From IMG/VR virus record IMGVR_UViG_2880395615_000010: a DNA stretch of 64,000 nt. One strand, written 5' to 3'. Positions 13,787 to 61,457 of the stretch are shown one piece after another. The position numbers and the translations under genes are program-made. The stretch comes from a virus. Taxonomy: Duplodnaviria; Heunggongvirae; Uroviricota; Caudoviricetes. Every line of letters begins with the position of its first letter. The first letter of the stretch is position 1. The notes below the pieces were generated by a model. The model did no database searches. It had not been told where the DNA came from and saw only the letters and a program-made list of their open reading frames with translations.

Positions 13787-14180
13787 ATCTCACACCTCCT
13801 GGAATCCCCGCTGAAGCCATCATTAATGCGGCATCATCCACCATGACATCCGCCACATCCGCAGACGATAAAATATCGCCCCCTCCGTCCCCACCGAACC
13901 GGACGCCTCCGGCAAGTCCTGCCGCTTTCTGCATCAGCATTTTGTCCTCATCCAGCCTCTCCACCTGCTCTTCCTCATGCCGGGGGACAAGCAGACTGAA
14001 ATCAGAGGGATGCATATCCGGATCGCAAAAAAACAGGCTGAGTACAGCGTACATCAGCCCGGAAAAATGCATATCCAGTTGGGTATCCTGAAAATAATGC
14101 GTGCGGTAAAAATGTCGCCAGTCGGCATATTCGGTGGATGTCATCCCGGCAAGCATGGCGCGCCAGTCAGGCCTCCCCAT
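13767..14180 (-). CDS. T: Tail assembly chaperone T frame, expressed as a G-T fusion by -1 frameshift
   Basis: ORF in the -1 frame relative to G, starting just downstream of a GGGAAAG heptamer. Confidence 0.7.
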   Translation of the reverse strand: MGRPDWRAMLAGMTSTEYADWRHFYRTHYFQDTQLDMHFSGLMYAVLSLFFCDPDMHPSDFSLLVPRHEEEQVERLDEDKMLMQKAAGLAGGVRFGGDGGGDILSSADVADVMVDDAALMMASAGIPGGVRYVPAGW

Positions 14181-14206
14181 CTCTCGCGCCAGTCTGAGGG
14201 CAAAAT

Positions 14207-14638
14207 TCAGCTCGCCGTCGAAGACTTTCCCGCAGAAAAATCATCATCAGTAAGCGCGTTATTTTTCGCCACTTCGGTGATATCCGTATCCACATGAACA
14301 GCCCCGCTCATCCCGGACAGACGCAACACCACGTCTTCCGCCCGGGCAATGGCATCAGCAGGCCAGGTGGTGAGCACCTCCTGTTCGATCTGCATCACAG
14401 CCTCATTCATTGATGGTGACTCCGTTTTCTGTGGATGGTTATGCCACAGGGACATCGCCACCAGAAACGCGCCGGTTCTGACAAGGTCTTCCACGCTCAC
14501 CTGCAGGTTACCGCTGGCTTCAGCCTGTTCTGCCCGTCGTTTCAGCAGGGCAAGATGCTCGATACGCTGCAGCGCAGACAGCTCGGAAAGCGTGACGGAC
14601 ACACCGTTATATTCAAATTGTTCGGTTTTCAGAAACAT
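14207..14638 (-). CDS. G: Tail assembly chaperone G, 143 aa
   Basis: Lambda G-like size and position upstream of T. Confidence 0.8.
   Translation of the reverse strand: MFLKTEQFEYNGVSVTLSELSALQRIEHLALLKRRAEQAEASGNLQVSVEDLVRTGAFLVAMSLWHNHPQKTESPSMNEAVMQIEQEVLTTWPADAIARAEDVVLRLSGMSGAVHVDTDITEVAKNNALTDDDFSAGKSSTAS
14224..14230 (-). promoter_or_regulatory. Programmed -1 ribosomal frameshift slippery heptamer GGGAAAG (G to G-T)
   Basis: Plus-strand ctttccc, reverse complement gggaaag, at the 3' end of G. Confidence 0.55.
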
Positions 14639-14651
14639 GTATTACCTCCGT

Positions 14652-15404
14652 TTACCCTGCAGCGCCCGCTTCAGTAACGGTGACTTCAGCTACCGTGGCA
14701 AACTGACCATTACCGGAAATCACGGGGATACTCACTTTTCCAGCCTTAACCCCCGTCACAGTGATCGCCATATCTTTCACAGCAATGGTTCCCGTTGACG
14801 GATCGGCGGAAACCGCTCTGAACGTTTTGTCGGTTGCACTTTCCGGCTCAAAAGAAACCGTCAGGGTTGTTGTTTTCCCTTTTGCCACCGTACCAGATGT
14901 CGGCGTCACCTTAATCGCAGTGACCGGCGTAATTTCGCTGCGTTCTTCCGCCACAGAAGGTTTACCCACGTTGGTCACTTTCACCGTACGGGTGATCACT
15001 TCCTTCGCCGTTACGGCCTTACCGATACTGCTGACCCAGCCACGGAACACATCCACCGTGCCGTTCGGGAAACGGATTTTATAGGCCCGCACATCCCCGC
15101 TTTCAAACCAGCCTATAAGCCCTTTCTGACCTTCTTCTCCCGGTTTCCAGGCCAGCGTAAAACTGGTATCTCCTGCAGACTTCTGCCCCTGCCCGGTCGC
15201 AGTCCAGTCCGCGTCTTCATCATCCAGGTAGTTATCATCGTAGGGTTCTGCCGTCATCTCGCCCGGCGTCAGATCCTTTACCTGTGCCAGTCGCTGCCAG
15301 TTATCGTCTGACAACGGGTTTGCATAGGCATCACCCTGACCGTTATAAACCCACAGGGTGGTACCGGCACCTTTTACCGGTGCCAGAGGATTTGGTGTTG
15401 GCAT
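14652..15404 (-). CDS. V: Major tail protein V, 250 aa
   Basis: Lambda V-like size and position. Confidence 0.85.
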
Positions 15405-15411
15405 ATCGTCC

Positions 15412-15807
15412 TCACATCTCGTATGTAATGGAATAAGTCAAATCAGCAGAACTCCATAACGCCATATCGTCATCACGACGATACTCATAGCCCTGCGTAA
15501 CCATCGTGGTAATCAGGCCTGACAGTGCCGGGATCGCACTCATCGCCGGATAAATCCGGCTTTCCATCCACGAATCCAGCTCTGAATCCGGCACCTGAGC
15601 AGGCAGGAAAACTTCAATATGCAGCTCCGCCTGCCAGGTATCGCTGTCCAGCGCTTCGCCCGTGTATTCAGCGCCGGTGAGATAAACAGCAATTGCCGGA
15701 AAATCCGCCTCATCAAAAACAGCGGGGCGACCGTCAAACAGCGTCGCCCCGTGTTCATGCTGCTCGAGTGCATCCAGCACTGCAGCACGGATATCAGTAT
15801 GTTTCAT
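15412..15807 (-). CDS. U: Tail terminator protein U, 131 aa
   Basis: Lambda U-like size and position. Confidence 0.85.
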
Positions 15808-16379
15808 CGCTTTATCACAATCCTTAGTTGTTGTTTCAACGCATAGCCCAGTTCTTTTGGCAGACGTTCTCGCCGGATACGGTTAACGTTCTCATCAAAA
15901 GCCTGCTTCAGTGGGGCCGCCATCGGAATTTTAACCACCTGAATGGGAAGACGATTACGCTTTTTCCTTCCTTTATCGTCATTGCCCTTCGCATACCGGG
16001 CTTCTGGCAAACGTTGCATAACATGCCAGCGCCCATTATTTAATCGCTGGATGAATGCCCGCTGATAACGATGCTGACCGGCTTTAAGTATGCTGTTCGG
16101 ACGATGACCAAGCATCCTGATCCCCAGCTTAATAGCAGGGAGATCACCGCGGTTAACGATAATTCTGGCATTCGGATTTCTGACCGTGGCCCGTTTCAGT
16201 CTGGACCGTTCCTTTACCAGTTTCCGGCTCACCCTGGTCTCCCGGGCAACCTGTGATGAAGACTGATTAATCGCCGTTGTAGCCACGCGGTTAATAGCCA
16301 TTGCTGAAGCCGACGGAATGGCGTTTTTACGAACCCGGCTCAGATTTTCAATCGCCTGATCAAGCCCTTTTATCGCCAT
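15804..16379 (-). CDS. Z: Tail completion protein Z, 191 aa
   Basis: Lambda Z-like size and position. Confidence 0.85.
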   Translation of the reverse strand: MAIKGLDQAIENLSRVRKNAIPSASAMAINRVATTAINQSSSQVARETRVSRKLVKERSRLKRATVRNPNARIIVNRGDLPAIKLGIRMLGHRPNSILKAGQHRYQRAFIQRLNNGRWHVMQRLPEARYAKGNDDKGRKKRNRLPIQVVKIPMAAPLKQAFDENVNRIRRERLPKELGYALKQQLRIVIKR

Positions 16380-16393
16380 AATTCACCCTGCGT

Positions 16394-16747
16394 TTATCGT
16401 CGCCGGTTAACTGCGGGTGGTTGCCCACGGTTCAGCCAGAGATAACAACTGCCCCCGTCATCCGGAGAAACACGATCCACCCAGAACGTCTCACCATTAA
16501 TGGTCAACGTGTCACCACGCCGCACGGCACGAACCGTATCCGTCCGCACAAATAATGACGGGCTGCTTCCTTCAATACGGATCCCACTACTGGCAAAACC
16601 CAGCGACTCCGGATCGTCAAAAACCCCCTGAACTTCGCCGCCACGCTGTGCACCGGAGGTGAACTGCGCACTGATGCCCATCACTTCAACAATCGTACTG
16701 TCCACCCCGGCAAGGGCGGCATCAAAGGCATTCTGAAAATCACGCAT
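16394..16747 (-). CDS. FII: Head-tail connector protein FII, about 117 aa
   Basis: Lambda FII-like; likely start at MRDFQNAFDAALAG as in copy B. Confidence 0.75.
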   Translation of the reverse strand: MRDFQNAFDAALAGVDSTIVEVMGISAQFTSGAQRGGEVQGVFDDPESLGFASSGIRIEGSSPSLFVRTDTVRAVRRGDTLTINGETFWVDRVSPDDGGSCYLWLNRGQPPAVNRRR

Positions 16748-17162
16748 AAACAGCCATTCCACCATCAACGTGTGTTTTTGCATCTGAGGACATAATCAGA
16801 ATCACCCGACCAACATCCGCAAGCTCAACGGATTCCCCCGTTTCACCATCAACGCCACAGAGATGGAGGCAGGTCAGAACTCTGATGCGCGTTAACGCGC
16901 CGGATGTTTCCTCACGAACATCATGAGCCGCGTTTTCCCTCTCCCGGATATCCATATTCATAACCTGTACATCATCGCCGGATGACTGCATTTCCTCTTC
17001 CCATTCTGCCACCCGCTGCGCTATCTCTGCGGCACTCCCGGATATATCCGGCTCACGCCCCAGAATCAGGGCCAGTTCATCAAGCCGTTTCAGATTTTGC
17101 TCTTTCGTTGCCATATCATCCCCCTGTGAAAAAAGACACGGGGGCATTTCGCCCCCGCTCAC
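16740..17162 (-). CDS. FI: DNA packaging protein FI-like, 140 aa
   Basis: Position between E and FII; C-terminal half differs from copy B. Confidence 0.6.
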   Translation of the reverse strand: MSGGEMPPCLFSQGDDMATKEQNLKRLDELALILGREPDISGSAAEIAQRVAEWEEEMQSSGDDVQVMNMDIRERENAAHDVREETSGALTRIRVLTCLHLCGVDGETGESVELADVGRVILIMSSDAKTHVDGGMAVYA

Positions 17163-17165
17163 GGA

Positions 17166-18194
17166 TTATTTCACCTGTACCACCACAAACTCATCCGGGT
17201 CCGGCAACACCATCAGCGGCGCGGACTGCGTCATGGTAAATTCACGGGCGGGATCCCCTACCGTCAGCCAGTGTTTCGGATAACGGGAAGAGGCCACCAC
17301 ACCTTCGGACAACGCCTGCGCATCCTGAATGGCACCATAGCAACGAATGCCCTCTGCTGCCGTATTCCCCAGGACCAGCGAGCCCTCAGGCAGATAACGT
17401 TTTTCGGTACCGTCCTCTGCCACATAAGACGTTTTTGCCACCACAATGGCCAGATCGCCGTAATACCCTTTGAAGGACACCACCGCGCCCAGGTCTTTCA
17501 CCGCTGTTTCGAGTTGCGAATTAGAGCCGCGACGGGTATCCAGTTTTTCGCGGAACAATTTAAAGCCATTCAGCAGACGCCAGACGGTACCGTCCATAAT
17601 GGCAATATTCACAAGACCGCTGGCCTGGTCGCAGTAGAGGTCAAGATCATGTGTAGGATCGAACGTGTCACGATCCTGTTTTGACCACTCCTTACCACTA
17701 CCCTGAGTGATGTTATTCTTCGTCGACCTGCCAAAATCGACCTCAATTTTCTCGAACTGGTCTCCTTCCATCGTGTATTTGCCATACAGCACGGCATTCA
17801 CCGCCTGCATTTCTTCCACCTGGACAATGGCGTGCTCTTCCTGTTTGAGGTTATCAGTGATGATACGCAGACGACGGTAGGCCGGGTCGTTCAGCTGAGC
17901 CGGATCTTCACCGGGAAGACGCTCAACCGCCTGCTGGTAATTAAATTCGTGTTTCGGCTTGACGTAGCCCGGACGTAACACGCGGGTTTCACCACCACGA
18001 TGACGCAGCACTTTTCCTTCAACAACCGGGGAGACATAGGCCGCCACCGGCGTTTTTCCGGTAATTTTGTCCAGCATCACCTCTTCGGTATGGAAATTCA
18101 CCGTACGGCGGAAAAACAGCTCCAGAAACAGCGCACGAAATTTCACTTTTTGTTCGGTATAACCGAGTAACTGGCGGGTCGTAAACAATCCCAT
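17166..18194 (-). CDS. E: Major capsid protein E, 342 aa
   Basis: Strong resemblance to lambda E from memory (GYVKPKHE..., ...DPAREFTM.QSAPLM...). Confidence 0.9.
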   Translation of the reverse strand: MGLFTTRQLLGYTEQKVKFRALFLELFFRRTVNFHTEEVMLDKITGKTPVAAYVSPVVEGKVLRHRGGETRVLRPGYVKPKHEFNYQQAVERLPGEDPAQLNDPAYRRLRIITDNLKQEEHAIVQVEEMQAVNAVLYGKYTMEGDQFEKIEVDFGRSTKNNITQGSGKEWSKQDRDTFDPTHDLDLYCDQASGLVNIAIMDGTVWRLLNGFKLFREKLDTRRGSNSQLETAVKDLGAVVSFKGYYGDLAIVVAKTSYVAEDGTEKRYLPEGSLVLGNTAAEGIRCYGAIQDAQALSEGVVASSRYPKHWLTVGDPAREFTMTQSAPLMVLPDPDEFVVVQVK

Positions 18195-30948: not shown

Positions 30949-31025
30949 TGGCGCGTTGTACTGGATTCGAACCAGTGACCGATTGCTTAGAAGGCAATTG
31001 CTCTGTCCGGCTGAGCTAACAACGC
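30949..31025 (-). tRNA. argO: tRNA-Arg (anticodon UCU)
   Basis: Perfect cloverleaf: acceptor gcgttgt/acaacgc, anticodon loop CTTCTAA, T-loop TTCGAAT, encoded CCA. Confidence 0.8.
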
Positions 31026-31038
31026 AGGATACAGATAA

Positions 31039-31116
31039 TGGACCGCCTTCGGGGACCCGAACTCCGCGCAACCAGCTTCGAAAGCTGGCGCTCTTTCCTG
31101 ATGAGCTAATGGCGGT
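31039..31116 (-). tRNA. argN: tRNA-Arg-like (anticodon read as UCG), imperfect stems
   Basis: Perfect anticodon stem ccagc/gctgg with loop TTTCGAA, but one mismatch each in the acceptor and T stems. Confidence 0.5.
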
Positions 31117-31122
31117 ATGTGA

Positions 31123-31198
31123 TGGTGGCCCTTGCTGGATTTGAACCAGCGACCTGGCGATTATGAGTCGCTCGCTCTCACCACTGAGCTAAAGGGCC
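31123..31198 (-). tRNA. ileZ: tRNA-Ile2 (anticodon CAU, ileX/ileZ-like)
   Basis: ggccctttagctcagtggtgagagc...ctCATaa...ggttcaaatccagcaagggccacca, very close to E. coli ileX from memory. Confidence 0.85.
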
Positions 31199-37699: not shown

Positions 37700-38776
37700 T
37701 TACCCCCTGAAGCCCAGTGGAATTTCGGTATCTGGTTCAGAAATGTGATTCACGCAACGCTGGTTGTTCGTACCGCTTACCGGGAGCAACCAGGGGTTCT
37801 CAAAATTCCGGTCCGGTCCTAAAAACGTCGTCGCTCGCTGAACAAATTCCGTTCCCGTTTTCCCGGTAGCCGCCAAGTATCTTGCGTAACGCCTCACGCC
37901 ATCCAGCATGGCCTCTGGTGGCACCCCCTCGCGTAATCTGGCCTTCCAGGCACTGAAAGCGGATTTCTTCGGGTTTGCTCCGGCACGCAACGGGTACTCC
38001 CGCCAGACCTGTTCGAACACATCCGGATAATCCACTCGTCCCACAGACTGCCCGGTGTTTTCCGGGACTACCCGATCGGCTTCCCGCAGAATGGCGGAAT
38101 CGGCTTCAGGCTGCTGCAGTTGGTGTGATTGCTCCGGCCTTGCGGTCATCACCTGCTGCACAGCGCCCGAATCGGCTTTCAGCGCATACGCTGAATCGGC
38201 TTCCGGTGTCGTGCCTGCTGGCTGACCAAGATTGACGGTCTGAACATCCCCTGCCTGGTTCGTGGCGTTTTTTACGCCATGGACCATAGTGTTTTGATCT
38301 TCTTGATCTGTATCTTTATCTGTATCTTTATCTGTCGTTACTCGTCGTGACATGTGCGTGACATTTCGTGACGCGCCGTGACAATCGCCATTTTGTTCCC
38401 GCTTTCTTTCCCTCTCTCGCTGCGCCCTCTTGCGCTCTGCAGGAGATTTTGCGGTTTGCGAAATATTGCCGTTGTCCTCTTTAAGCACCTGGCGTTTTTC
38501 CCATCCAGTGATTAAATCACCATCAAGTACCCGCCCCTGCATCGTCTGCAAAATTGAATCAATTACCTCTTCTGTCACGTCGAGCGCACTTGCCAAATCT
38601 TCTGTCGTGACATCAATGTGACCTCGCGTGACATTTCGTGACGCGCTCACCAGGAGGTGGATATACACTGCCATCACTGTTGCAATTGGCTGCCCTGACA
38701 CCCTGGCAATTGTTCGCCACTTAGGGTCATTTGGCATGTCATGCCATAATCTGAGCCAAGCGTTAGCCATACTCAC
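37700..38776 (-). CDS. Replication initiator/organiser protein (lambda O-like role), 358 aa
   Basis: Position after the cro-like/YdaT-like genes; internal iteron clusters; conserved C-terminal region (VFEQVWREYPLRAGANPKKSAF...). Confidence 0.65.
   Translation of the reverse strand: MSMANAWLRLWHDMPNDPKWRTIARVSGQPIATVMAVYIHLLVSASRNVTRGHIDVTTEDLASALDVTEEVIDSILQTMQGRVLDGDLITGWEKRQVLKEDNGNISQTAKSPAERKRAQRERERKREQNGDCHGASRNVTHMSRRVTTDKDTDKDTDQEDQNTMVHGVKNATNQAGDVQTVNLGQPAGTTPEADSAYALKADSGAVQQVMTARPEQSHQLQQPEADSAILREADRVVPENTGQSVGRVDYPDVFEQVWREYPLRAGANPKKSAFSAWKARLREGVPPEAMLDGVRRYARYLAATGKTGTEFVQRATTFLGPDRNFENPWLLPVSGTNNQRCVNHISEPDTEIPLGFRG
38346..38382. repeat. Iteron cluster 1: four CGTGAC repeats at 10-11 bp spacing
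   Basis: cgtgac at 38346, 38357, 38367, 38377. Confidence 0.55.
38609..38645. repeat. Iteron cluster 2: four (C)GTGAC repeats at 10-11 bp spacing
   Basis: gtgac at 38609, 38620, 38630, 38640; 21-mer gcgtgacatttcgtgacgcgc identical to cluster 1. Confidence 0.55.
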
Positions 38777-38841
38777 CTCTTCTGATACCGAATCTTTTTA
38801 CTCACGAGTTGCCGGAAGCGATTCGATATGGCTATTGTCAG

Positions 38842-39267
38842 TCAATGTACTGCCACAGCATTTCCTGCCGGGCCACCACGGTTCATCTGATTGAAACCGG
38901 CGATTGCCACTGCGACAAAATCATCAGCGTCTCTCACCAATCGCTCCCGCGTCTCCACCAGCTCCCGAAAATAAGCTGAACTGTGGCTGCGCATTCTGGC
39001 CACCAGCAAAGGTGGCATTGCCTTTTCGATCGCTGGTAACAACGCCTGAATTTTTTCAACTGCATCAGGGGTGTCTTTCTCTACCCAGCGGAAAATTTTC
39101 TGGGTATTGCGAGCCAGGGCTTCCGGATGGCTGTCGTCATACAGTTCAGGAAACGTCATACCCAACTCAAAATAAGCCTGGGTTATTCCAGCTGCTGGAA
39201 CTTTTTCGCCATCAGGACGCGCCCAGGCATTCATCGCCATGCGGATGTGTTCATGCTTGATTTTCAT
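38842..39267 (-). CDS. ydaT: YdaT-like protein, 141 aa
   Basis: N-terminus MKIKHEHI matches my recollection of K-12 YdaT; overlaps the upstream HTH gene. Confidence 0.6.
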   Translation of the reverse strand: MKIKHEHIRMAMNAWARPDGEKVPAAGITQAYFELGMTFPELYDDSHPEALARNTQKIFRWVEKDTPDAVEKIQALLPAIEKAMPPLLVARMRSHSSAYFRELVETRERLVRDADDFVAVAIAGFNQMNRGGPAGNAVAVH

Positions 39268-39532
39268 GAATCAAGCTCCTAGTAAGTGGTTGTGTTAACG
39301 TTTTGGTATCTTCCAGCTCGGGCCAAATATTCATCCAATCAAAAGGCCTTAGTTGCTGACGTGTAACTTCACCATTACTGGCTCGCTCAATAAGGACACA
39401 TAACGATGCCCCTAAGATTTGACCTTTACTCAATGCCTTTCTTAGATAACCGATGCTAGTACCACACTCACATGCAAACATACGCTGTTCATCTGACGAA
39501 AGAGAATTGAGAAATATTCTTAATTCTTCCAT
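39251..39532 (-). CDS. Cro/YdaS-like HTH regulator, 93 aa
   Basis: HTH segment CGTSIGYLRKALS; divergent from the repressor-like gene. Confidence 0.6.
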   Translation of the reverse strand: MEELRIFLNSLSSDEQRMFACECGTSIGYLRKALSKGQILGASLCVLIERASNGEVTRQQLRPFDWMNIWPELEDTKTLTQPLTRSLIHENQA

Positions 39533-39632
39533 AGCTACTCCTTAGTAAACACAGCAAAGAATACCCACAGGTAAACAAAAGTCAATACCCCTAGGTTGTT
39601 TACCTTGCGGTAATCGCATCTATTATTTACCT
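39533..39632. promoter_or_regulatory. Divergent promoter/operator region of the immunity switch
   Basis: Inverted repeat ggtaaacaa...ttgtttacc plus repeated TTACC motifs between divergent HTH genes. Confidence 0.45.
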
Positions 39633-40052
39633 ATGGACAAATATGAATTTAGACGACAACAACTCATCAAAATTCGTGATGAGAAATGCGATGGTAAAGC
39701 GGTTAACGTGGCCAGAAAGATCGGTCGCGAGCCTTCTTATGTATCAAGAATGTTGTACCCAGAGGGGAAAAAAGGAAAAAAACGGATCGCTGATGATATG
39801 GTGGAGATTATAGAAGAGTCCTTTGGGTTACCCCGGGGATGGATGGATGGTATCGTTTCATCATCAACGAACACAGCCTCCAATTATGAAACAAGGGTTC
39901 TAACGCCACGACAACGTATTTTTTTAGATCTCTTAGACGAACTGCCAGAAAGTGAAGCGGATAACTTATTAAAAACTCTTGAAGAGAAAAAACAGTATTA
40001 CAATATGATCTACGAAGAAATCCGTAAAAAGAAAGCACAAAACGCATCATAA
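39633..40052 (+). CDS. Prophage repressor-like HTH protein without a peptidase domain, 139 aa
   Basis: HTH KAVNVARKIGREPSYVSRML; no Ser/Lys dyad region. Confidence 0.55.
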   Translation: MDKYEFRRQQLIKIRDEKCDGKAVNVARKIGREPSYVSRMLYPEGKKGKKRIADDMVEIIEESFGLPRGWMDGIVSSSTNTASNYETRVLTPRQRIFLDLLDELPESEADNLLKTLEEKKQYYNMIYEEIRKKKAQNAS

Positions 40053-40096
40053 CTCACCAAACAACCAGTCACCAGTTAAGACACATCAAAAAAAAT

Positions 40097-49901: not shown

Positions 49902-50501
49902 TCAGAACTTATAACCGACACCCACGATGAAACCGTCAGTGCGCCAGTCGCCACTGCCGGAGCCTTCATAAGCGACATCAACGGCCACTGATTCGGTCGG
50001 GTTAAACTGCACGCCAGCCCCCCACGCCAGAGATGTGTTGCTGTAGCGAGCGTCATCACTTCCGGTCAGCACGTCGTGCGTTTTCCTCTTGTTGTCAGTT
50101 ACGCGAAGATAATCCCCGGAGAAAGTCGACACACGGCTGTAAGCCATACCCGCCATCGCATACGCGCTGAACCATTCATTCACGCGCACAGACGGCCCCG
50201 CCATCACGCTGAACCAGCGGTTACGCACGGAATCTTCATGCCAGCGGATATCGCTGTAACGGGTCAGCTGGCGATTCTTGTCTCCTGCATAGCTGAATGA
50301 CGTCACCAGCCCCAGTGTGTCCGTAAACTCATAACGGTATTTCACGTTAATCCCGTTCAGATCATCGCTGCCGGGAACGTTCGTCGAGGCATGAAGATAC
50401 CCCGCGCTCAGCGTGGACTGATGTTCAGATGCCCATGCAGGCGCACCGGATACAGCCAGACAAATGGCTGCGGAAAAAATGGCGGCATAAAGTTTACGCA
50501 T
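49902..50501 (-). CDS. lom: Lom-family outer membrane protein (copy B)
   Basis: Near-identical to the copy A lom. Confidence 0.85.
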   Translation of the reverse strand: MRKLYAAIFSAAICLAVSGAPAWASEHQSTLSAGYLHASTNVPGSDDLNGINVKYRYEFTDTLGLVTSFSYAGDKNRQLTRYSDIRWHEDSVRNRWFSVMAGPSVRVNEWFSAYAMAGMAYSRVSTFSGDYLRVTDNKRKTHDVLTGSDDARYSNTSLAWGAGVQFNPTESVAVDVAYEGSGSGDWRTDGFIVGVGYKF

Positions 50502-50568
50502 AATTACCTCTCGCTTTTCTGCAATAAAAAAGGCGCCATTTCTGGCGCCCGTATATGGGTTATAAAAT

Positions 50569-53500
50569 TCAGCTGATACTGATGCCTGCTGTGGATTTTT
50601 TCATCACCACAACCAGCAGATCGCTGATACTTGCTGTGGGATACCAGTTATTTACCAGCCATGCTGACACCGAAAACTCCAGCGTCATGTGACCGTGACC
50701 GGCAGGCATATCAATAACGCCACTGTAAATCAGCGTATTATCCAGCGCGGTACGGTTATAAATTTCAGCACCGTTTTTCCGCACTATCAGACGGCATGAG
50801 GAGTAAATATCAGTATGCTCTCTCTCATGTTTAGCGCCGCTGAATGCCACCGCCGGAATAACAATTTGCCGGTCAAACGGCTGATCGTCATAAACCCTGA
50901 CGGTAATGGTCCCTGATGGCCACCGCTCCGGTGCACGGGAATCCCGGGGGAAAGCTTTGCCCACTGTTTTAACGAGATCGCCTTCAATCTGGTTCGCGGA
51001 CAGTTTTCCCAGAACCCGACAGTTCTCGTTAATCGTGACGTTGTTGAGCGTCCCGGAATTCGCATTCACGTTACCGCTGATATCAGCATTTCTTGCGGTC
51101 AGACTGCCCTCCGGCGTCAGGGAAAACGTCGGGGGATTGCCGGACGAGGTGATACTCACCGCAAACAGCCGCTTCAGGAACACATCGTTCATGAACAACT
51201 GATTCCCCTGCGCCACAAATAACGGCGTGGTGTTGCCGTCCTCCGGGTTAATCATCGCAATACGGTCAGCCAGCAGCAGTATGTTGCTCAGGGGCTGGCC
51301 ATCAGTATCCTCAATCCCCGCTCCAATACCGGCAACATAGGGAATGCCGTCTTTCGTTTTTTGAACCTTCAGCATGTACAGCGCAGCCAGGTCATCATTT
51401 GTGTCCTTCTGCACGCGCTGTATCTGCTGTATGGTGGCGCTCTGGTCTTCCAGCGTTTTACTGACCGTCTGTGTGATTTCATTGCGGGTTTCGGTGATGG
51501 TGGTCTTCATCTCCGCCATCTCATCCGCAAGCTGGCTGTTGTCTATCAGCTCCCACAGCCCCTGAGCCAGATGCAGTTTTCCTATTTTTTCCCGGAAAAA
51601 TTCCAGATACCCTTCACCATCATTGCTGGGCTGCCCGCTGATTTCCACAAACGCAGATTTCCCCACCAGGTTGACGCTGCGCACGTAAAACCAGAAATCC
51701 TTCCCGGGCTTAATGTGCGGGCCGGATACACTCCACTGACTGCCGGTCCCCAGATAACGGGCAGAGGTTTCCACCTGAGATATGTCTGCGATTTTTGTCT
51801 CCGAAAACCAGAACTCAAACTGTACCGTCGGGTCATACACCGCAAGACGCGGGACCGCTGTTATCTGAAAATAGCCCGGTGTCAGCTCAATCTGTGACGG
51901 CGCTGCCGGTGCGGCAATCCGGAACGATACCGACGCCGGATCGCCCTGCTGCCCCCACGCATTTACCGCCCGGACTGTCAGCCTGTAGTTCCCCGGCGCC
52001 AGTTGCGTGAAGCGGTATGTGGTTTCCGTCGTCCGGGCCGTGCTGACCAGCCGCTCACTGCCGTCATCCGCGACCACGGTCAGGCGAAGCATAAAGCTCA
52101 CGCCCTTCACCACCTTCGGCGTGTCCCATTTCGCCTGTGCCAGATACTGACCGTCAGCCGCGCTCACCTCCACCGTCAGGTGCTGCACTGCCGGTGGAAT
52201 AACGCTGTTCAGGGTGCCTGACTGCGGCTCAAAGCTGGCCCCGTTATCCACGATGGCTTCTTTTTCCGGTACGTGCTGCACCGCCGTGATGGCAAAGGTG
52301 CCGTCCGTGTTTTCCCGGATGGAGACACAGCGGAACAGGCGACGACGCAGTGACGGCAGGGAGAGTCCCCATACACCGTATGTCTCCACACCATCAGGCA
52401 GGGTGCTGACCTGTATCCGGTCCGGCGCGGGGTGTGCAGTGATGGCCACGCTCACCGGCTTACCGCTGCCGTTAATCAGGTTCACCGTGGCGGCACCTGT
52501 CTCCGGCAGGGTCACCTCACGGTCCAGTGTCAGGGTGCGGCTGGCGGCATCGATGGACAGGATACGTCCGCCGGTCATGGTCCCGGCATAGTCGTTATCA
52601 CAGATTTCAATAATGTCACCGGGTGTGTGACGCAGCCCCTGTGACCCGAGCGTGAAATCCACCGTCTGCGTTTCCAGCAGTCCGGTCTTTATCACCCACA
52701 GCCCGGCACGGTGGGCCTGACCGCGACTGGTGCAACCGAACGCATCCATCTTCAGCAGGTTGCGCCCGTAGCGCAGTATGGCTTCCGGGTCTTCCACCAG
52801 TTCCGTGGAGGTCTGCCAGCCGTTCTGCGGGTCGGTGTAATTCACCTCCACCGCCGTGTGGCGGTCCTTCAGGGCGCTGAAGCTGTAGCGAAACCCCACG
52901 CCGTTATCATCCACCACCACATCGCAGTTGGTGTACGGCCACACCACATCCGACGGGCGGTCCTGAACGAACGTCAGCGTCTGGCCGTTCCATACCGGCA
53001 TACAGCGCATCGCCGAGCAGAAATCACTGAGCACATCCCATGCCTTACGCTGTTGTGACAGGTACGCATTAAAGGTCATCCGCGGCTCGGTCCCCCCGAA
53101 ACCATCCGGCACCGTCTGGTCGCAGTACTGCGCAATGGCATACAGCGCCCATTTGTCCACGTCTGCCGCCCCCAGACGTTTTCCCATGCCGTAGCGCTGG
53201 TGAGTCAGCATGTCCCACAGGCACCAGGCCGGGTTATTGCTGTATGCCGGTTTCAGGCTGCCGTCCCAGATACCGCTGTAAGTGCGTTTTTCCGGGTCAT
53301 AGTTTGACGGTACCTGAATGATGCGACCGCGGATATGGTAGTTCACCGTCATCTGCTGGCCACCAAACTGCTCCGCATCCACCTGCAGCCCCACAATCGC
53401 CGTGTTCGGGTAGCACTGTTTCACATCGATGATTTCGGTGTATGACGACCAGAGCGTCTTATTCTGCAGCTGGTCCGGGGTGCTGTCCGCTGTCTCCCGG

Positions 53501-54045
53501 ACCATCCGGATGTTAAAGGGCCGGGGAGGCAGATTATCCAGAATCACCGACGCCAGGTACTGTGAGGTGGTCTTGCCGTTAATGGTGACATCCTTTTCCG
53601 TCACCCAGTTACCGTTACGCTGCAACTGAATCAGCAGTCGGACAGAAGAGGGATTACGGTCGCCCTTTGAGGTGGTCTCCAACAGTGACTGCACCCCGAA
53701 GGTGACCCGCAGGCGGTCAATGTTCGCGGATGTAATGGTGCGCGTCACCGGCTTTGCCTTCGTCACTTCCACGCCCAGTGCGGTTTCAGCTCCGGAGGAC
53801 TCAAAGCCTTCAGGTGGTGTCTGCTCCTGCTCCCCGGCGCGCCAGACCGCTGTCACACCATGTATCACAGGATTACCGTCCGTGTCCGTCAGCGGGGTTT
53901 TGTTCACCAGGATACTCTGCAACCCCTTCACCGGACCTTCAATCGGCCCTTCACCAATGGCATCAATCACGCTCATCATCTGCGTGGACTTAAGATTGTC
54001 CTTTGCCTCAACCGGCGTGTGCGCCCTGCCTCCACCTTTACCCAT
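50569..54045 (-). CDS. J: Tail tip host-specificity protein J (copy B), 1158 aa
   Basis: Co-linear with copy A J but the last about 130 aa differ. Confidence 0.9.
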
Positions 54046-54178
54046 AATGTTCCTCTCAATTGGTATTATTAATCGCAGTGATAGGATATTGCACAGCTAT
54101 TGCGCGATATCATCAGAACGCTGTTTGTTACCCTGTAACCAGCAAGCTCAGTCTGTTAACGGAATTAATGAGGGTTTT

Positions 54179-54706
54179 ATGAAATGTAAAATCATTGCTG
54201 CCATTGCCATGCTGACAGCAGCATCATGCGGATACGCAGCAGAACAGGAAGTCCCAATGAACCTTGTCAGTGCTGACGGAAAAGAAGTCAGCATTGGAAA
54301 AATAACCATTCAGGAGACCCCCTACGGTCTGCTGTTCACACCAGCCCTTCACTCTCTGTCTGAAGGCATTCATGGTTTTCATGTGCACGAAAAAGGAAAT
54401 TGCGCCCCGGCACTGAAAGACGGAAAACCGGTCGCAGCATTATCGGCTGGCGGTCACTTTGACCCGAAAAACACCGGCAAACATCTTGGCCCCTGGTCTC
54501 CGGATGGACACCTGGGCGACCTCCCTGCGCTGTTCGTGACGCATGACGGAAAAGCGAACTACCCGGTCCTGGCCCCGAGACTGAACTCATTAAAAGAGAT
54601 TAAAGGGCGTTCTCTCATGCTTCATGCTGGCGGTGATAACCATCATGACCATCCGGAGCCCCTGGGCGGTGGTGGTGCGAGAATGGCCTGCGGCATCATT
54701 CAATAA
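54179..54706 (+). CDS. sodC: Periplasmic Cu,Zn superoxide dismutase SodC, 175 aa
   Basis: Signal peptide then [11 protein letters not shown]...GGHFDP...GDLP...[12 protein letters not shown] motifs; SD GAGGG; only in copy B. Confidence 0.85.
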
Positions 54707-54713
54707 TCAGTCA

Positions 54714-54742
54714 GGTAAGGGGCGGGCCCCTTACCTTTATTC
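54714..54742 (+). terminator. Intrinsic terminator after sodC
   Basis: ggtaaggggcgggccccttacc followed by tttatt. Confidence 0.55.
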
Positions 54743-54896
54743 CTCAGGACGATAAATCCTTTCTCCCTGAAAAGAACGGCACATCCTCCCTCTCTGAGTT
54801 AATGTTTTTGTCGTGACATAAGAATAATTCCTTACACTCAATCTTCGTAACGCTCCCGCAGTTCCTGTCCGTGAGCACTGCGGGATTTTTTCGCTT

Positions 54897-55577
54897 TTAT
54901 GCCTGCCGCCCGATAACCACCACCTTCCCGCCCCCGCCTTCATCACGGGTGCTGATGTCCTGGGAGATTCGCCGGGAGCCAACCAGCATTTCACCGTAAG
55001 GCACCGGCATCGGGTTCCCCTGGGCAATCATGTTATCCAGCGACGAAAAGTACGTGTTCTGTTTACCGTTATCCGTTGCCCTGTATTCCGGTGTTTTTGG
55101 CTTCGGGGCAAGCATCTGAGCCACACCACCCAGTATCATGCTGGCACCCAGTGAAAACAGCATCGTGGTGGCAGAAAAACCGCCGGCACTCAGCGCTGCA
55201 CCCCAGGCTGCCATCGATGCTCCGGCCGTGAAGAAAGAGCCCACGATGGCTGCCGCCCCCAGCACAATCTGCAGTCCACCCTTTCCGGCCCCGGCCAGTC
55301 GCGGCACAATATGGATGACCGCCCCCTCACCCAGCTGTTCGTGAAGACGGGCGTACACCGCCTCCGGTGCCGTGTCCTCACCGCGAATACGTATCTGGTA
55401 CCAGCCTTCGTTCATCTGACGGCGGAATCCCGGCATCTGCATCGACAGGGCACGGATGGCTTCCGCTGCCGTGTTCACATACAGGCTGAGGCGGCGGCCA
55501 AATCGTTGCAAATCCCCGTGAAGGCAGATGCGTGCCAGTGGCGGTGACGCCAGAGGGAGTGTGTGCGTCGCTGCCAT
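54897..55577 (-). CDS. I: Tail assembly protein I (copy B)
   Basis: Homologous to 8844-9515. Confidence 0.8.
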   Translation of the reverse strand: MAATHTLPLASPPLARICLHGDLQRFGRRLSLYVNTAAEAIRALSMQMPGFRRQMNEGWYQIRIRGEDTAPEAVYARLHEQLGEGAVIHIVPRLAGAGKGGLQIVLGAAAIVGSFFTAGASMAAWGAALSAGGFSATTMLFSLGASMILGGVAQMLAPKPKTPEYRATDNGKQNTYFSSLDNMIAQGNPMPVPYGEMLVGSRRISQDISTRDEGGGGKVVVIGRQA

Positions 55578-56218
55578 TTATCGGTATACCTCTCTCGTTT
55601 GCTCAGTTGTTCAGGAATATGGTGCAGCAGCTCGCCGTCACCACAGTAAATGGCGGCATGATTCGGCACCGATGAACCAAAACAGCACAGCAGCACATCG
55701 CCCGGTTGTGCTGATGACAACGGCACCTGATACAGCCCTGTGGCCTCCAGATTATCCAGATAGAGATTCTGACCGTGACGCCACCAGTCATCCCCGCGAT
55801 GAAAATCCGGCATCTCAATCCCCGCCAGATGATAAGCATCCCGGAACAGCGTGTAACAGTCCGTCACCCCGTGCTCAAAGCGCCGTCCTGTCAGATGTGG
55901 CACACAGCGGAATTTATGAATTTCCCCCCGGCAGACCAGCCACCAGAACAGTGCACTTTTTATCTGCAGCCGCCGGTCGGCCTCGCTCAGCCAGGGCAGA
56001 CCACCGGGATGACTGTGGACCAGTGCCACAATCTCCCCCTGCATCTCTGCCCGCAGCCAGTCTTCCGGTGCGATACGAAAATACGCCTCCGGCTCTGCAG
56101 AGATATTCACACAAGGGATATACCGTTCCCCCTCCGGCGTGCTTATCACGAAGCCGCACGACTCCGCAGGCGCACACCGCCGGGCATGCGCCAGAATCGC
56201 TGATTCAGTCTGTGTCAT
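55475..56218 (-). CDS. K: Tail assembly protein K (copy B)
   Basis: Start at MTQTESAILAHARRC as in copy A; the ORF-track N-terminal extension is probably not translated. Confidence 0.75.
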   Translation of the reverse strand: MTQTESAILAHARRCAPAESCGFVISTPEGERYIPCVNISAEPEAYFRIAPEDWLRAEMQGEIVALVHSHPGGLPWLSEADRRLQIKSALFWWLVCRGEIHKFRCVPHLTGRRFEHGVTDCYTLFRDAYHLAGIEMPDFHRGDDWWRHGQNLYLDNLEATGLYQVPLSSAQPGDVLLCCFGSSVPNHAAIYCGDGELLHHIPEQLSKRERYTDKWQRRTHSLWRHRHWHASAFTGICNDLAAASACM

Positions 56219-56228
56219 AAAACAGGAT

Positions 56229-56927
56229 TTACTGCGAAAGTTTATTGATGGAAAGGAAACCGCCAAAATTGACCGCCATGCCGCGCATCTCACACCCGCG
56301 CATGCATTTACTGCATCTGTCCTTCCGGATATCCGTGGTGGGGTTGTCGAACTCATCCGCCACTGCCGGACCGTTATACCCGCATTCATCGCCCCGGTAA
56401 TCCCACATACAGGTGTTCGCCAGCATGATGCGACCGGGAAACAGCGCCCCGTCCGTCTCCGTCGGTGTCGCCAGCACAAACGAGGCCGTCATGGCCGTCA
56501 GCGATGACATCTGCTCCACCACCCACCGGTCCGTCAGCTCCTGCTCAGGGTCTGCCTCAGGATTGCCTGCCACAAAATTCACCGCATCCAGAAAACGGGC
56601 ATACACCCGGCGGCGGACCACCGTGGCCCCCACCAGGCTCTGCAAATCCTCCGCCATCCCGGTGACAAGGCCGAAAAGATTGGACACCGTCAGCGACGGG
56701 CGGGCACTGCTGCCCTTTCCGTTCATCTCAAAGCCGCTGCCCTCAATCGGGTACGCCTGATATTCACGCCCCTGCCAGGTCACCGCCTCCCCTTTTTCAT
56801 TCAGCTCATTGCAGAAAAAATACCGCTCACCACCCTGTACCGTCAGGTCGATTTCCCAGAGTACCACCCGCGGTGACTGCTCTGATTTAACCGACTCGTT
56901 CAGACTTTCTTCGTGAATATCCTGCAT
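56229..56927 (-). CDS. L: Minor tail protein L (copy B)
   Basis: Homologous to copy A. Confidence 0.85.
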   Translation of the reverse strand: MQDIHEESLNESVKSEQSPRVVLWEIDLTVQGGERYFFCNELNEKGEAVTWQGREYQAYPIEGSGFEMNGKGSSARPSLTVSNLFGLVTGMAEDLQSLVGATVVRRRVYARFLDAVNFVAGNPEADPEQELTDRWVVEQMSSLTAMTASFVLATPTETDGALFPGRIMLANTCMWDYRGDECGYNGPAVADEFDNPTTDIRKDRCSKCMRGCEMRGMAVNFGGFLSINKLSQ

Positions 56928-57256
56928 CAGTTCACCACCTGCTTAAACTCGGCACTGAATTCAACCCGCAGCATGCGAACCCGTGATGACCAGGCGGCAC
57001 AGGTCACCTTTATCTGCCGCCAGGCATAAGGCGGTGTCCACAGAAACGCCTTCCAGCCACCGTGCTCTGCCAGGAATGCCTCCAGATGTCGGGCCTCCTC
57101 CCGGGTCACGGAAAGCGTCACACGGTATGTTTTCAGGTCAGCATTCAGCCCCGCCGCCATACGCTGCGAATACCCGTCACCAAAACGCACTTCACGCACC
57201 GATGGCTGCGAGTTCACCTCCATATCCGGCTTCACTTTCCAGCGAAATGTTTTCAT
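56927..57256 (-). CDS. M: Minor tail protein M (copy B)
   Basis: Homologous to copy A. Confidence 0.85.
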   Translation of the reverse strand: MKTFRWKVKPDMEVNSQPSVREVRFGDGYSQRMAAGLNADLKTYRVTLSVTREEARHLEAFLAEHGGWKAFLWTPPYAWRQIKVTCAAWSSRVRMLRVEFSAEFKQVVN

Positions 57257-59832
57257 CGCCTGCCTCCGGAAAAGACGCCGCCATCACGCATCTGCGCCTG
57301 AATCTCATCCTGCGCCCCCTTGCGGGCCATGTCATACACCGCCTTCATCAGCTGCGGCCCCGCCTGTCCGTTGGAGCCGTCGTTCTGAATCACCACGTGA
57401 TTGTTCTGATTAAAATTAATGCCTTCCGTCCGCCGCATCTGCGCCGGACTTCCGGCACCGCCCACATAACCACCTTCCGCATAGCCCCGCATCAGGCGGT
57501 ACAGGTTGCCGACGCCAATCCGGCTGGTTGCCTCCTTCGTGAAGACAAACTCCCCGCGATGAACAATCCCCGCAGGCTCATATTTGCCGCCCGTCCCCGT
57601 AAATCCCCCGGTCGCGAAATGGAAGTTCGCCGCCGCAGCCTGAATGGCCGTCCCCGTGGAGGCAGACGCCCCACCACCGAAAGCACCACCAATGGCGCTG
57701 CCGATACTCCCGACAATCCCCACCATTGCCTGCTTAAGCAGAATTTCTGTCATCATGGACAGCACGGAGCGGGTGAAGCTGCGCCAGTTCTGTTCACTGC
57801 CGGTCAGCATCACCGCCATATTCTGTGCAATACCGTCAAAGGTCTGCGTGGCCACGCTTTTAACCTGCGAAAAACTGTCCGTCGCACTTTCCGCCCACTC
57901 GCCCCAGCCGGACTTCAGCCCGGCCATCCAGCTTCCACGAAGCTGCTCCTCCGCAGACCAGGTGTTCTTCAGTGCCGATGTGGCCTTCGCCAGCGCAGCC
58001 GGATTATCACCGTACACGTCACGAAGGCGCTGCTCTTCCGACTCCCGCTGCGCCTGACGGTCGGTGAGGCCCCGCGCCTGGGCACTGATTGCCGCCTGCT
58101 TCGCACTCTGCTGCTGTTCAAACCGCGCCGCCTGCTGTGCCAGCTCATTCAGCCGTTTCTGGTGTTCAACTTTGTCTCCCAGCTCAGCCAGCTGGCGTTT
58201 GTACTCCAGCGTCTCTTTCTCATGGGTCAGCAGGGATTTTTCCTGCTCAGATAACTGCCGTTTCGTGGCTGCCTCTTTCAGGACCGCATACTGATTTTCC
58301 GCTTTCCATAAATCGCGACGCTGCTGGCTGATTTTCTCATTCGCACCGCTGTGTTTTTCCAGCGTCCGGAGCTCGGTTTCAAGCGCCAGCAGGGCAGCAT
58401 GCGCCTGGTCTTCCTGACGCTCACCGGCTGACACTTTGACTCCTGACGACTTCGGCTTTTTCAGCGTCGATTCATAATCCTTTTTCGCCGCCGCCATCAG
58501 CGTGTTGTAATCCGCCTGCAGGATTTTCCCGTCTTTCAGGGCCTTATTCAGTTCTTCCTGACGGGCGGTATATTTCTCCAGCGGCGTCAGCAGACGCTCA
58601 TACGCCTTCTGCGCCTCTCCGGTATACTTCAGCTGTGATGCGTCCCGTTCGGCCCGGTCCCTGGCGGCCAGTTCACCGGCTTTTTCCATATCCGACTGCA
58701 GCGTGGCCGCTGCCAGCCCCAGACGGGCATTTTCCCGGTCATTCCATGCGCCCTGAAGGTTGGCCCGGAAAGAGGCGGTTTTTCCCCGGCGCTGGCTCCG
58801 GCTCTGGTACCACTGCCATTTTTTATCTGCCTCATCAAATGCCTTCTGTGCACTGGCGAGCATATCCGCTGAGGACTCAGGACGACCGATATCCAGAATG
58901 GCATCCCACATCGATTTGAATGCCTTCCCTGTTTTATCCGCCCAGGTCTCCAGTGTTCCCATGTTTTCTTTCAGGCGACGGGTCTGCTCATCAAAGCCTT
59001 TCGTGGCGATATCGTTCGCCGCCTGCAATGCCCCGGCCTCGTCTCCGGAACGCTGCAGCTGTGCAACATACGCAATCTGCTCTGCCGTCACGTTACGGAA
59101 CTGGCGCGCCATCGCCATCAGTCCCGACGTCGGGTCGGTGGTCAGTTTTCCGAAAGCCTCTGCCACCTTGTCCACCTCCACACCGGATGCAGAAGCAAAA
59201 CGCGCGACACTCTGGTTGATGGCATCAAACTGTTCACCACCACGCACACCGGCATTCACCAGGGCTGCCAGTGACTCACTCGCCTGGTTAAACGTCAGCC
59301 CTGCGGCCTGTCCGGCTCTGGAGAGCGTCAGCATGCGATCGGCAGTCAGTCCGGACTGATTACCGGAAAGAACCAGGGTTTTATTAAACGCTGAAAGCGT
59401 GGAATCCCCCTGGTACCAGGCGTACGCCAGCGCACCTGTCGCCACCGCCAGCGAGGTGACCCCGACCATCGGCAGGGTGATCGCACCGGCAAGTCCCCTG
59501 AACATGGGGATCATCCCGCCGAAGGAGTCCTTCACCTGACCGCCCTGTTGCAGCAGGATCAGCCAGGGATTCTGACCACCGGCAAGCTGCGTGGCGATAT
59601 CCGTAAACTGTGCGGGCAGGGTTCGCATGGCCGCTTTATACTGCCCGACGGAAATCCCGGCTTTTTGTGCAGCCAGCGCCTGACGACTCAGGTTCTGCTC
59701 AACAACACCGGCGGTTTTTCTGGCGTCAGTCTCCAGTCCGGAAAAATGACGCCTTACCCGGCTCATCTGCTCATCGAAACGGACCGCATCCAGACTCAGG
59801 TCAATAACAAGATCACCAACCGGCTGGGACAT
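57253..59832 (-). CDS. H: Tail tape measure protein H (copy B), 859 aa
   Basis: Homologous to copy A. Confidence 0.9.
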   Translation of the reverse strand: MSQPVGDLVIDLSLDAVRFDEQMSRVRRHFSGLETDARKTAGVVEQNLSRQALAAQKAGISVGQYKAAMRTLPAQFTDIATQLAGGQNPWLILLQQGGQVKDSFGGMIPMFRGLAGAITLPMVGVTSLAVATGALAYAWYQGDSTLSAFNKTLVLSGNQSGLTADRMLTLSRAGQAAGLTFNQASESLAALVNAGVRGGEQFDAINQSVARFASASGVEVDKVAEAFGKLTTDPTSGLMAMARQFRNVTAEQIAYVAQLQRSGDEAGALQAANDIATKGFDEQTRRLKENMGTLETWADKTGKAFKSMWDAILDIGRPESSADMLASAQKAFDEADKKWQWYQSRSQRRGKTASFRANLQGAWNDRENARLGLAAATLQSDMEKAGELAARDRAERDASQLKYTGEAQKAYERLLTPLEKYTARQEELNKALKDGKILQADYNTLMAAAKKDYESTLKKPKSSGVKVSAGERQEDQAHAALLALETELRTLEKHSGANEKISQQRRDLWKAENQYAVLKEAATKRQLSEQEKSLLTHEKETLEYKRQLAELGDKVEHQKRLNELAQQAARFEQQQSAKQAAISAQARGLTDRQAQRESEEQRLRDVYGDNPAALAKATSALKNTWSAEEQLRGSWMAGLKSGWGEWAESATDSFSQVKSVATQTFDGIAQNMAVMLTGSEQNWRSFTRSVLSMMTEILLKQAMVGIVGSIGSAIGGAFGGGASASTGTAIQAAAANFHFATGGFTGTGGKYEPAGIVHRGEFVFTKEATSRIGVGNLYRLMRGYAEGGYVGGAGSPAQMRRTEGINFNQNNHVVIQNDGSNGQAGPQLMKAVYDMARKGAQDEIQAQMRDGGVFSGGRR

Positions 59833-60226
59833 ATCTCACACCTCCGGAAATCCCCGCTGAAGCCATCATTAATGCGACATCATCCTCGCTGACATCCGCC
59901 ACATCCGCAGACGATAAAATCTCACGCCCTCCGTCCCCACCAAACCGGACGCCTCCGGCAAGTCCTGCCGCTTTCTGCATCAGCATTTTTTCCTCATCCG
60001 GCATCTCCGTCTGCGCTTCCTCACGCCGGGGGGCAAGCAGACTGAAATCAGAGGGATGCATATCCGGATCGCAAAAAAACAGGCTGAGTACGGCGTACGT
60101 CAGCCCGGAAAAATGCATATCCAGTTGGGTATCGAGAAAATAATGCGTACGGTAAAAATGTCGCCAGTCGGCATATTCGGTGGATGTCATCCCGGCAAGC
60201 ATGGCGCGCCAGTCAGGCCTCCCCAT
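59813..60226 (-). CDS. T: Tail assembly chaperone T frame (copy B)
   Basis: Homologous to copy A; slippery ctttccc at 60271-60277. Confidence 0.7.
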   Translation of the reverse strand: MGRPDWRAMLAGMTSTEYADWRHFYRTHYFLDTQLDMHFSGLTYAVLSLFFCDPDMHPSDFSLLAPRREEAQTEMPDEEKMLMQKAAGLAGGVRFGGDGGREILSSADVADVSEDDVALMMASAGISGGVRYVPAGW

Positions 60227-60252
60227 CTCACGCGCCAGTCTGAGGGCAAAAT

Positions 60253-60684
60253 TCAGCTCGCCGTCGAAGACTTTCCCGCAGAAAAATCATCATCAGTCAG
60301 CGCGTTATTTTTCGCCACTTCGGTGCTGTCAGTATCCGCATGAACAGCCCCGCTCATCCCGGACAGACGCAACACCACATCTTCCGCCCGGGCAATGGCA
60401 TCCGCAGGCCAGGTGGTGAGCACCTCCTGTTCGATCTGCATCACAGCCTCATTCATTGACGGTGATGCCGTTTTCTGCGGATGGTTATGCCACAGGGACA
60501 TCGCCACCAGAAACGCGCCGGTTCTGACGAGATCTTCCACGCTTACCTGCAGGTTGCCGCTGGATTCTGCCTGTTCTGCACGCCGTTTCAGGAGGGCAAG
60601 ATGCTCAATACGCTGCAGCGCAGACAATTCGGAAAGCGTGACGGACACACCGTTATATTCAAATTGTTCTGTTTTCAGAAACAT
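60253..60684 (-). CDS. G: Tail assembly chaperone G (copy B)
   Basis: Homologous to copy A. Confidence 0.8.
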   Translation of the reverse strand: MFLKTEQFEYNGVSVTLSELSALQRIEHLALLKRRAEQAESSGNLQVSVEDLVRTGAFLVAMSLWHNHPQKTASPSMNEAVMQIEQEVLTTWPADAIARAEDVVLRLSGMSGAVHADTDSTEVAKNNALTDDDFSAGKSSTAS

Positions 60685-60697
60685 GTATTACCTCCGT

Positions 60698-61450
60698 TTA
60701 CCCTGCAGCGCCCGCTTCAGTAACGGTGACTTCAGCCACTGCGGCGAACTGACCATTTCCGCTCACCACAGGGATCTGCACCTTACCTGTCGCCACGCCG
60801 TTTACCGTAATTGTCATATCTTTCACACTAATGGTGGCTTTCGACGGATCGGCGGAAACCGCTCTGAACGTCTTGTCGGTTGCACTTTCCGGCTCAAAAG
60901 AAACCGTCAGGGTGGTTGTTTTCCCTTTTGCCACCGTACCGGATGTCGGCGTCACCTTAATCGCAGTGACCGGCGTAATTTTGCTGCGTTCTTCCGCCAC
61001 GGAAGGTTTGCCCACGTTGGTCACTTTCACCGTGCGGGTGATCACTTCTTTCGCCGTCACGGCCTTACCGATACTGCTGACCCAGCCACGAAACACATCC
61101 ACCGTGCCGTTCGGAAAACGGATTTTATAGGCCCGCACATCCCCGCTTTCAAACCAGCCTATAAGCCCTTTCTGACCTTCTTCTCCCGGTTTCCAGGCCA
61201 GCGTAAAACTGGTATCTCCTGCAGACTTCTGCCCCTGCCCGGTCGCGGTCCAGTCCGCGTCTTCATCATCCAGGTAGTTATCATCGTAGGGTTCTGCCGT
61301 CATCTCGCCCGGCGTCAGATCCTTCACCTTAGCCAGTCGCAGCCAGTCATCGTCTGACAACGGGTTTGCATAGGCGTCACCCTGACCGTTATAAACCCAC
61401 AGGGTGGTACCGGCACCTTTTACCGGCGCCAGGGGATTTGGTGTTGCCAT
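60698..61450 (-). CDS. V: Major tail protein V (copy B)
   Basis: Homologous to copy A. Confidence 0.85.
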
Positions 61451-61457
61451 ATCGTCC

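Follow-up and report, generated by a model that had tools for sequence, protein, structure and literature searches.

Two alleles of the J receptor-binding domain in a pair of lambda-like prophages

Introduction

Variation at the C-terminus of the tail protein J is a determinant of phage host range. For phage lambda, complexes of gpJ's receptor-binding domain (RBD) with LamB have been solved (8xcj and 8xck; Ge and Wang, 2024), and the trimeric Ig-like RBD was found to insert four bottom loops into the LamB trimer, after which the spreading of the RBDs travels up the beta-prism and the alpha-helical shaft and opens the tail tip (PMC11101478). Natural relatives of lambda share more than 97% identity with lambda J over the first 982 residues and 40-60% over the last 150, and their host ranges differ (10.1101/2020.06.25.171868).

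The porin OmpC is the receptor of several other J proteins. Two chimeras engineered from lambda gpJ, one of them A8 (Brodel et al., 2024, Nature), deliver DNA via OmpC and not via LamB (PMC11338833); A8 accepts OmpC of both K-12 and EDL933, whereas the second chimera, 1A2, accepts the EDL933 but not the K-12 variant (PMC11338833 and the corresponding preprint). The Stx2a siphophage vB_EcoS_phi330 forms no plaques on the Keio ompC deletion strain and is rescued by complementation, and an AlphaFold3 model of its complex with OmpC places a short loop (T918-Y921) and two hairpins at the porin, one (E953-S962) reaching into the barrel and one (A1015-P1020) lying on the rim (PMC12502783). The central tail fibre of phage 434 is a homologous J, followed by lom and stf, and this phage also uses OmpC. 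Here we compare with these systems the two J genes found in a window of 64,000 nucleotides, which is the whole stretch of DNA that was analysed.

Results and Discussion

The window contains two lambda-like prophages in the same orientation, hereafter prophages A and B, and in a self-comparison positions 2942-17985 align with 48207-63999 at 84-90% DNA identity. Positions 38000-45771 share 100% identity with the integrase-bearing end of a prophage located at a tRNA-Ser gene in E. coli O55:H7 DEC5B, and the sequence from about 46 kb onwards matches the espJ/tccP-carrying prophage of O55:H7 CB9615; two elements are therefore integrated in tandem. As the identity with DEC5B stops at position 45771, inside the tRNA-Ser gene of that strain, and a tRNA was not detected at this point, both prophages appear to occupy one tRNA-Ser attachment site as a stack. 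An integrase ORF of 341 aa in prophage A (within 44633-45800) has a sequence that is annotated as frameshifted in DEC5B.

Several other features of the two elements can be recorded. A cluster of three tRNAs is located in prophage A at 30949-31198 on the minus strand, coding for Arg (tct), Arg (tcg) and a tRNA with CAT anticodon, which is assigned to Met by ARAGORN and to Ile in the DEC5B annotation. At the right end of the same prophage, downstream of stf and tfa, there are two pairs of diverged direct repeats (1412-1714 vs 2284-2586 with 75% identity and 2051-2213 vs 2919-3089 with 85%), which may represent duplicated segments of a tail-fibre-assembly-like kind. On the plus strand at the right end of prophage B (46276-48127) are the type III effector gene espJ and an EspF-repeat (TccP-like) gene, the latter with tandem repeats of 141 bp (47492-48106). 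In prophage B, an ORF for a Cu/Zn superoxide dismutase (SodC-like, 54190-54706, plus strand) is located between tail gene I and J, on the opposite strand to them, and the same position in prophage A is occupied by 64 bp only.

Both J genes, which encode the tip attachment protein or central tail fibre, are intact ORFs on the minus strand, with 1160 aa in prophage A (5301-8783, copy A) and 1158 aa in prophage B (50569-54045, copy B). Each contains the six Pfam domains FNIII-A_GpJ, Phage-tail_3, Ig_J, Ig_J_second, Phage_Tail_Tip and Ig_GpJ_C, all far above the cut-offs, and thus the lambda-type architecture of a hub, two Ig/FNIII domains, a stalk and a C-terminal receptor-binding domain. J stands at the end of the tail cluster and is followed by lom and the genes for the side tail fibre and tail fibre assembly, an order shared with lambda, 434 and phi330. 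An earlier note on this DNA had described the two proteins as co-linear, and indeed they align from end to end with an overall identity of 74%; the peptide strings that it quoted for both copies are also present in the translations. Its suggestion that the proteins differ mainly in the last 130 or so residues does not hold, since columns 500-560 (48% identity) and 880-985 (57%) have diverged about as much as the C-terminal core, in spite of 75% identity over columns 1-1035 taken together. In between, columns 643-740 and 985-1035 form islands with 95-96% identity. The first of these corresponds to a stretch of near-identity between the genes (6549-6863 and 51814-52125, columns 641-745) which covers the first Ig-like domain and has a dS of 0.17 compared with 0.75-1.9 around it, and this suggests a separate and more recent exchange between the two J copies.

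Copy A is 99.3% identical to J of DEC5B, and at the DNA level the J gene of prophage B is 100% identical to its counterparts in E. coli O55:H7 CB9615 and RM12579. Compared with lambda J, copy A has 96% identity over aa 1-820 and 43% over aa 821-984, and the alpha-helical shaft is longer by an insertion of 28 residues in copies A and B alike (aa ~837-864). [quoted passage not shown] Judged from its sequence, J of prophage A is itself a mosaic and a natural counterpart of the engineered lambda chimera, because it combines a lambda-like body with a non-lambda RBD.

The earlier note had also pointed to a divergence at the C-terminus, and this divergence is real: in columns 1036-1139, a core of about 105 residues, the two proteins are 49% identical (51/104), with one indel of four and one of five residues. 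Defined by the first and last nucleotide mismatch, the core extends over 5364-5679 in copy A and 50632-50944 in copy B (both on the minus strand). Rather than scattered conservative substitutions, the alignment shows two distinct alleles, and the divergence of the core is far beyond chance. On the upstream side it is bordered by a block of 83 nt (5680-5762 in A, 50945-51027 in B, minus strand; codons 1007.3 to 1035.3 of the alignment) that is free of mismatches between the copies and codes for the last part of the beta-prism stalk and the first part of the RBD. On the downstream side there is a single mismatch before the J stop codon, and the last 20 residues are identical, so that the proposed identity of the final 25 residues is correct for these 20 but amounts to 23/25 over all 25.

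The DNA identity profile follows the same pattern, with 60-85% in the J body and 42-68% in the C-terminal core. At about 5348 in A and 50616 in B the identity jumps to mostly 97-100% and stays there through lom, stf and tfa, apart from a few 60-nt windows with 82-93%. This near-identical block covers 2942-5363 on the minus strand of prophage A, with the last 20 J codons, lom (4635-5234), stf (3257-4576) and tfa, and 48207-50631 on the minus strand of prophage B, with the last 20 J codons, lom (49902-50501), stf (48524-49843) and tfa (~48252-48521); for prophage B, the identical stretch of CB9615 has been annotated. Lom and Stf, the side tail fibre, both located at the cell-contact end of the tail cluster, are 95.5% and 97.9% identical at the amino acid level between the prophages, which means that the two RBD alleles are carried on nearly identical side fibres.

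Substitution rates (Nei-Gojobori) were clearly different between the core and its surroundings. In the core dS is saturated (2.68) and dN is 0.44, whereas the flanks have a dS of 0.29 upstream and 0.25 downstream, and therefore core and flanks have separate histories, which indicates a recombination mosaic and not local divergence. The dN/dS of about 0.17 in the core corresponds to purifying selection. One J body with different RBD alleles was also found among public sequences: in the Stx2a phage pair LC727841 (A type) and LC727858 (B type), a region of 10.5 kb around J is about 100% identical apart from two stretches, the 3' end of J (about 700 bp) and a patch upstream of the gene (about 300 bp), which shows that the alleles are swapped between otherwise identical phages. 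The upstream patch lies at 1268-1565 of locus L008 in comparison with L009. Taken together, the contrast in dS, the abrupt switch of identity at 5348/50616 and this pair of phages argue for the exchange of the core as a cassette.

The divergent stretch is the receptor-binding domain of J, as the earlier note had proposed. Pfam PF12421 (Ig_GpJ_C) covers it in both copies (aa 1037-1160 in A and 1028-1158 in B), and an AlphaFold2 model of the copy B RBD agrees in fold with the RBD structures solved for A8 and lambda gpJ (mean pLDDT 76; TM 0.81-0.85 to 9wcb, 9wca, 8xck and 8xcj), with 60% identity to 9wcb over 154 aligned columns. The Ig-like fold is thus predicted by a model for B, and for A it follows from sequence identity to a solved chain. 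Lambda gpJ shares the domain architecture and the Ig-like fold with both copies, and its mechanism, in which a trimeric RBD on a trimeric porin leads to opening of the tail, is presumably the same. Nevertheless, neither copy has an RBD of the LamB-binding lambda type: the lambda core is 37% identical to copy A and 40% to copy B, and the sequences of the four bottom loops are unrelated. In addition, lambda gpJ uses LamB, which A-type particles do not (PMC11338833). The OmpC-binding 434 type does not fit by sequence either, as its core is about 42% identical to B and 35-40%, as reported, to the A type, and it has a different C-terminal tail.

The RBD of copy A belongs to a type with a described receptor. 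From TYASGTITV to the C-terminus it is identical to the chain "A8 gpJ 713" in 9wca and 9wcb, which was found by a PDB sequence search, and from TSTYASG to the end it is identical to J of phage vB_EcoS_phi330; the C-terminal region of phage 2H10, one of the natural lambda relatives mentioned above, is 95% identical to that of copy A. Whereas 9wca represents the closed state, the title of 9wcb reads 'Open state of A8 gpJ 713 central tail fiber with OmpC G17 from E. coli EDL933', and the OmpC chain in this entry was found by a PDB search with a porin gene annotated as ompC (locus L001), which we think is a yedS-like paralogue because of its position. The loops predicted to contact OmpC in phi330 are present in copy A, with ANNWTP as the rim hairpin and with 14 residues for the short loop and the barrel hairpin together, 10 of them in the barrel hairpin. 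As the RBD is identical to that of A8 gpJ, with its OmpC-bound structure, and to that of the OmpC-dependent phi330, we infer that OmpC, established as the receptor of the identical protein elsewhere, is also the receptor of the copy A allele in this prophage.

The core of copy B is 100% identical to that of many Stx2a phages and 99% identical to that of VT1-Sakai (Sp15). Among 50,697 phage records it was found with at least 94% identity in 54 and with 80-90% in three more, and carriers of this type include VT1-Sakai (Sp15), Stx2a_WGPS2, JLK-2012, the PPompW prophages, PhiR5_1 and PhiR46_1, without notable sequence differences. In the same set of phage records, the discrete classes 4A7, BP-4795, A/phi330, lambda and 434 reach 57%, 53.5%, 52.5%, 46% and 42% identity to the copy B core, respectively. 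Copy B is placed outside the A8/phi330 type because of its 49% identity to the core of copy A and the 60% to 9wcb over 154 columns, and as 4A7 and BP-4795 retain A-type hairpins, it is an outlier among the types with a common C-terminal tail. The B core is carried by 3370 of 5426 complete E. coli genomes, with a median of two copies per genome, which makes the B type the most frequent J tip allele of the species; the A core was found at an identity of at least 95% in about 1475 records.

A published receptor for the B allele was not found in the literature searched, which included work on VT1-Sakai/Sp15 and on the PhiR collection. VT1-Sakai/Sp15 has been transferred to K-12 only through chimeras with Sp5, which says nothing about the receptor (Asadulghani, 2009, PMC2669165), the SNIPE paper on the PhiR collection tested ManYZ and not outer-membrane receptors, and a large receptor-screen preprint dealt with GpJ of Drexlerviridae and not with lambdoid J.

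At the level of single elements, copy B has VNNWYP at the position of the rim hairpin. Its first loop, DSRAPERW, is four residues longer than in copy A, and at the position of the barrel hairpin it has EREHTDI, which is five residues shorter than and unrelated to the hairpin of copy A; the predicted contact hairpins of the A8/phi330 type are thus both present in copy A, and in copy B the first is replaced and the second altered. A general concentration of the A/B differences in loops was considered and rejected, since identity is 52% in the predicted strands and 52% in the loops. Therefore, the argument from the loops depends on the pair of indels and on what the AlphaFold3 model published for phi330 predicts. 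Since B has another sequence in place of a loop which A is predicted to insert into the porin, we infer that B differs from A in specificity, at least in the porin variants that it accepts. It is plausible from the sequences that the two prophages even use different receptor proteins, but divergence of the RBD alone does not predict a different receptor, because the dissimilar RBDs of A8, 1A2 and phage 434 all use OmpC.

The use of OmpC by such dissimilar domains is in line with a first reading, in which both RBDs bind OmpC and the alleles differ in the natural OmpC variants they accept, in the same way as A8 is broad and 1A2 is restricted to the EDL933 type. The core identity of about 52% between B and the OmpC-binding A type exceeds the reported 35-40% between the A type and 434, and B keeps NNW-P of the hairpin predicted at the OmpC rim, a part of the contact motif that fits continued use of OmpC, as well as the identical last 20 residues. 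Furthermore, the B allele is frequent in prophages of O157 and O55, whose hosts have the OmpC variant recognised by 1A2. On the other hand, the 10-residue hairpin that phi330 is predicted to insert into the barrel has given way in B to the unrelated shorter sequence, and that B equals 1A2 is no more than a guess, because the sequence of 1A2 was not found in the papers and supplements searched: protein and DNA strings of the B allele had no matches in the main text and supplements of Brodel et al. (2024) and in related preprints. Overall, we give this reading a chance that comes close to even.

Alternatively, the receptor of the B RBD is some other outer-membrane protein, such as OmpF, LamB or a further porin, so that the two prophages would use different receptors. 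At both indel positions the loop lengths of B equal those of the LamB-binding lambda RBD, the core is just 49% identical to A, and within the J family one and the same fold has demonstrably been switched between LamB and OmpC. However, B and lambda have 40% identity in the core and unrelated loop sequences, and all non-lambda alleles of the J RBD tested in PMC11338833 and PMC12502783 have OmpC as their receptor. A change of receptor is a serious possibility, to which we assign somewhat less than an even chance, and the narrower proposal that the B-type RBD uses an outer-membrane protein other than OmpC or LamB seems rather unlikely to us.

That the difference between A and B has no function and merely stems from decaying or drifting tail genes of defective prophages, as could be imagined from the many defective lambdoid prophages of this lineage (PMC2669165) and from the integrase sequence of prophage A that is annotated as frameshifted in DEC5B, is highly improbable, because each J ORF has its full length and the complete set of six Pfam domains, the dN/dS of the core (about 0.17) indicates purifying selection, and both alleles are conserved in active phages, the B core at 100% in dozens of genomes of Stx-converting phages and the A core in identical form in the plaque-forming phi330.

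The best explanation in our view, and one we hold with good confidence, is that the prophages carry two known RBD alleles which are exchanged as a cassette, the A type recognising OmpC and the B type having a differing specificity. According to this explanation, the two tandem lambdoid prophages would hold two pre-existing alleles of the C-terminal Ig-like RBD of J, and the cassette of about 105 codons would be exchanged among lambdoid phages by homologous recombination in the conserved stalk block upstream and in the last 20 J codons together with lom/stf downstream. With lambda as the model, the J trimer would dock its three RBDs on a trimeric outer-membrane porin with the bottom loops in the barrels, and binding of the porin would spread the RBDs and open the tail tip. 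Copy A would represent the A8/phi330 allele, which uses OmpC elsewhere, and copy B the VT1-Sakai-type allele, with presumably the same fold and altered loop lengths.

Conclusion

Both alleles, which are identical to public phage sequences, and the variation of the J cassette were already known, so that the finding as such is ordinary and leaves the knowledge of lambdoid mosaicism and J-mediated host range unchanged. Its value lies in annotation: prophage A can be labelled with an OmpC-recognising tail tip, for which the receptor complex of an identical RBD has been solved, and prophage B with the commonest J tip allele of E. coli, whose receptor is seemingly unpublished. Furthermore, the natural boundaries of the cassette fall into the same conserved stalk block in which the chain of A8 turns from lambda-like to donor sequence, which is a hint for the design of a B-type chimera. 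If the B type indeed used neither OmpC nor LamB, a very widespread phage-host interface would still lack an assigned receptor, and prophages stacked in one genome would partition receptors between them.
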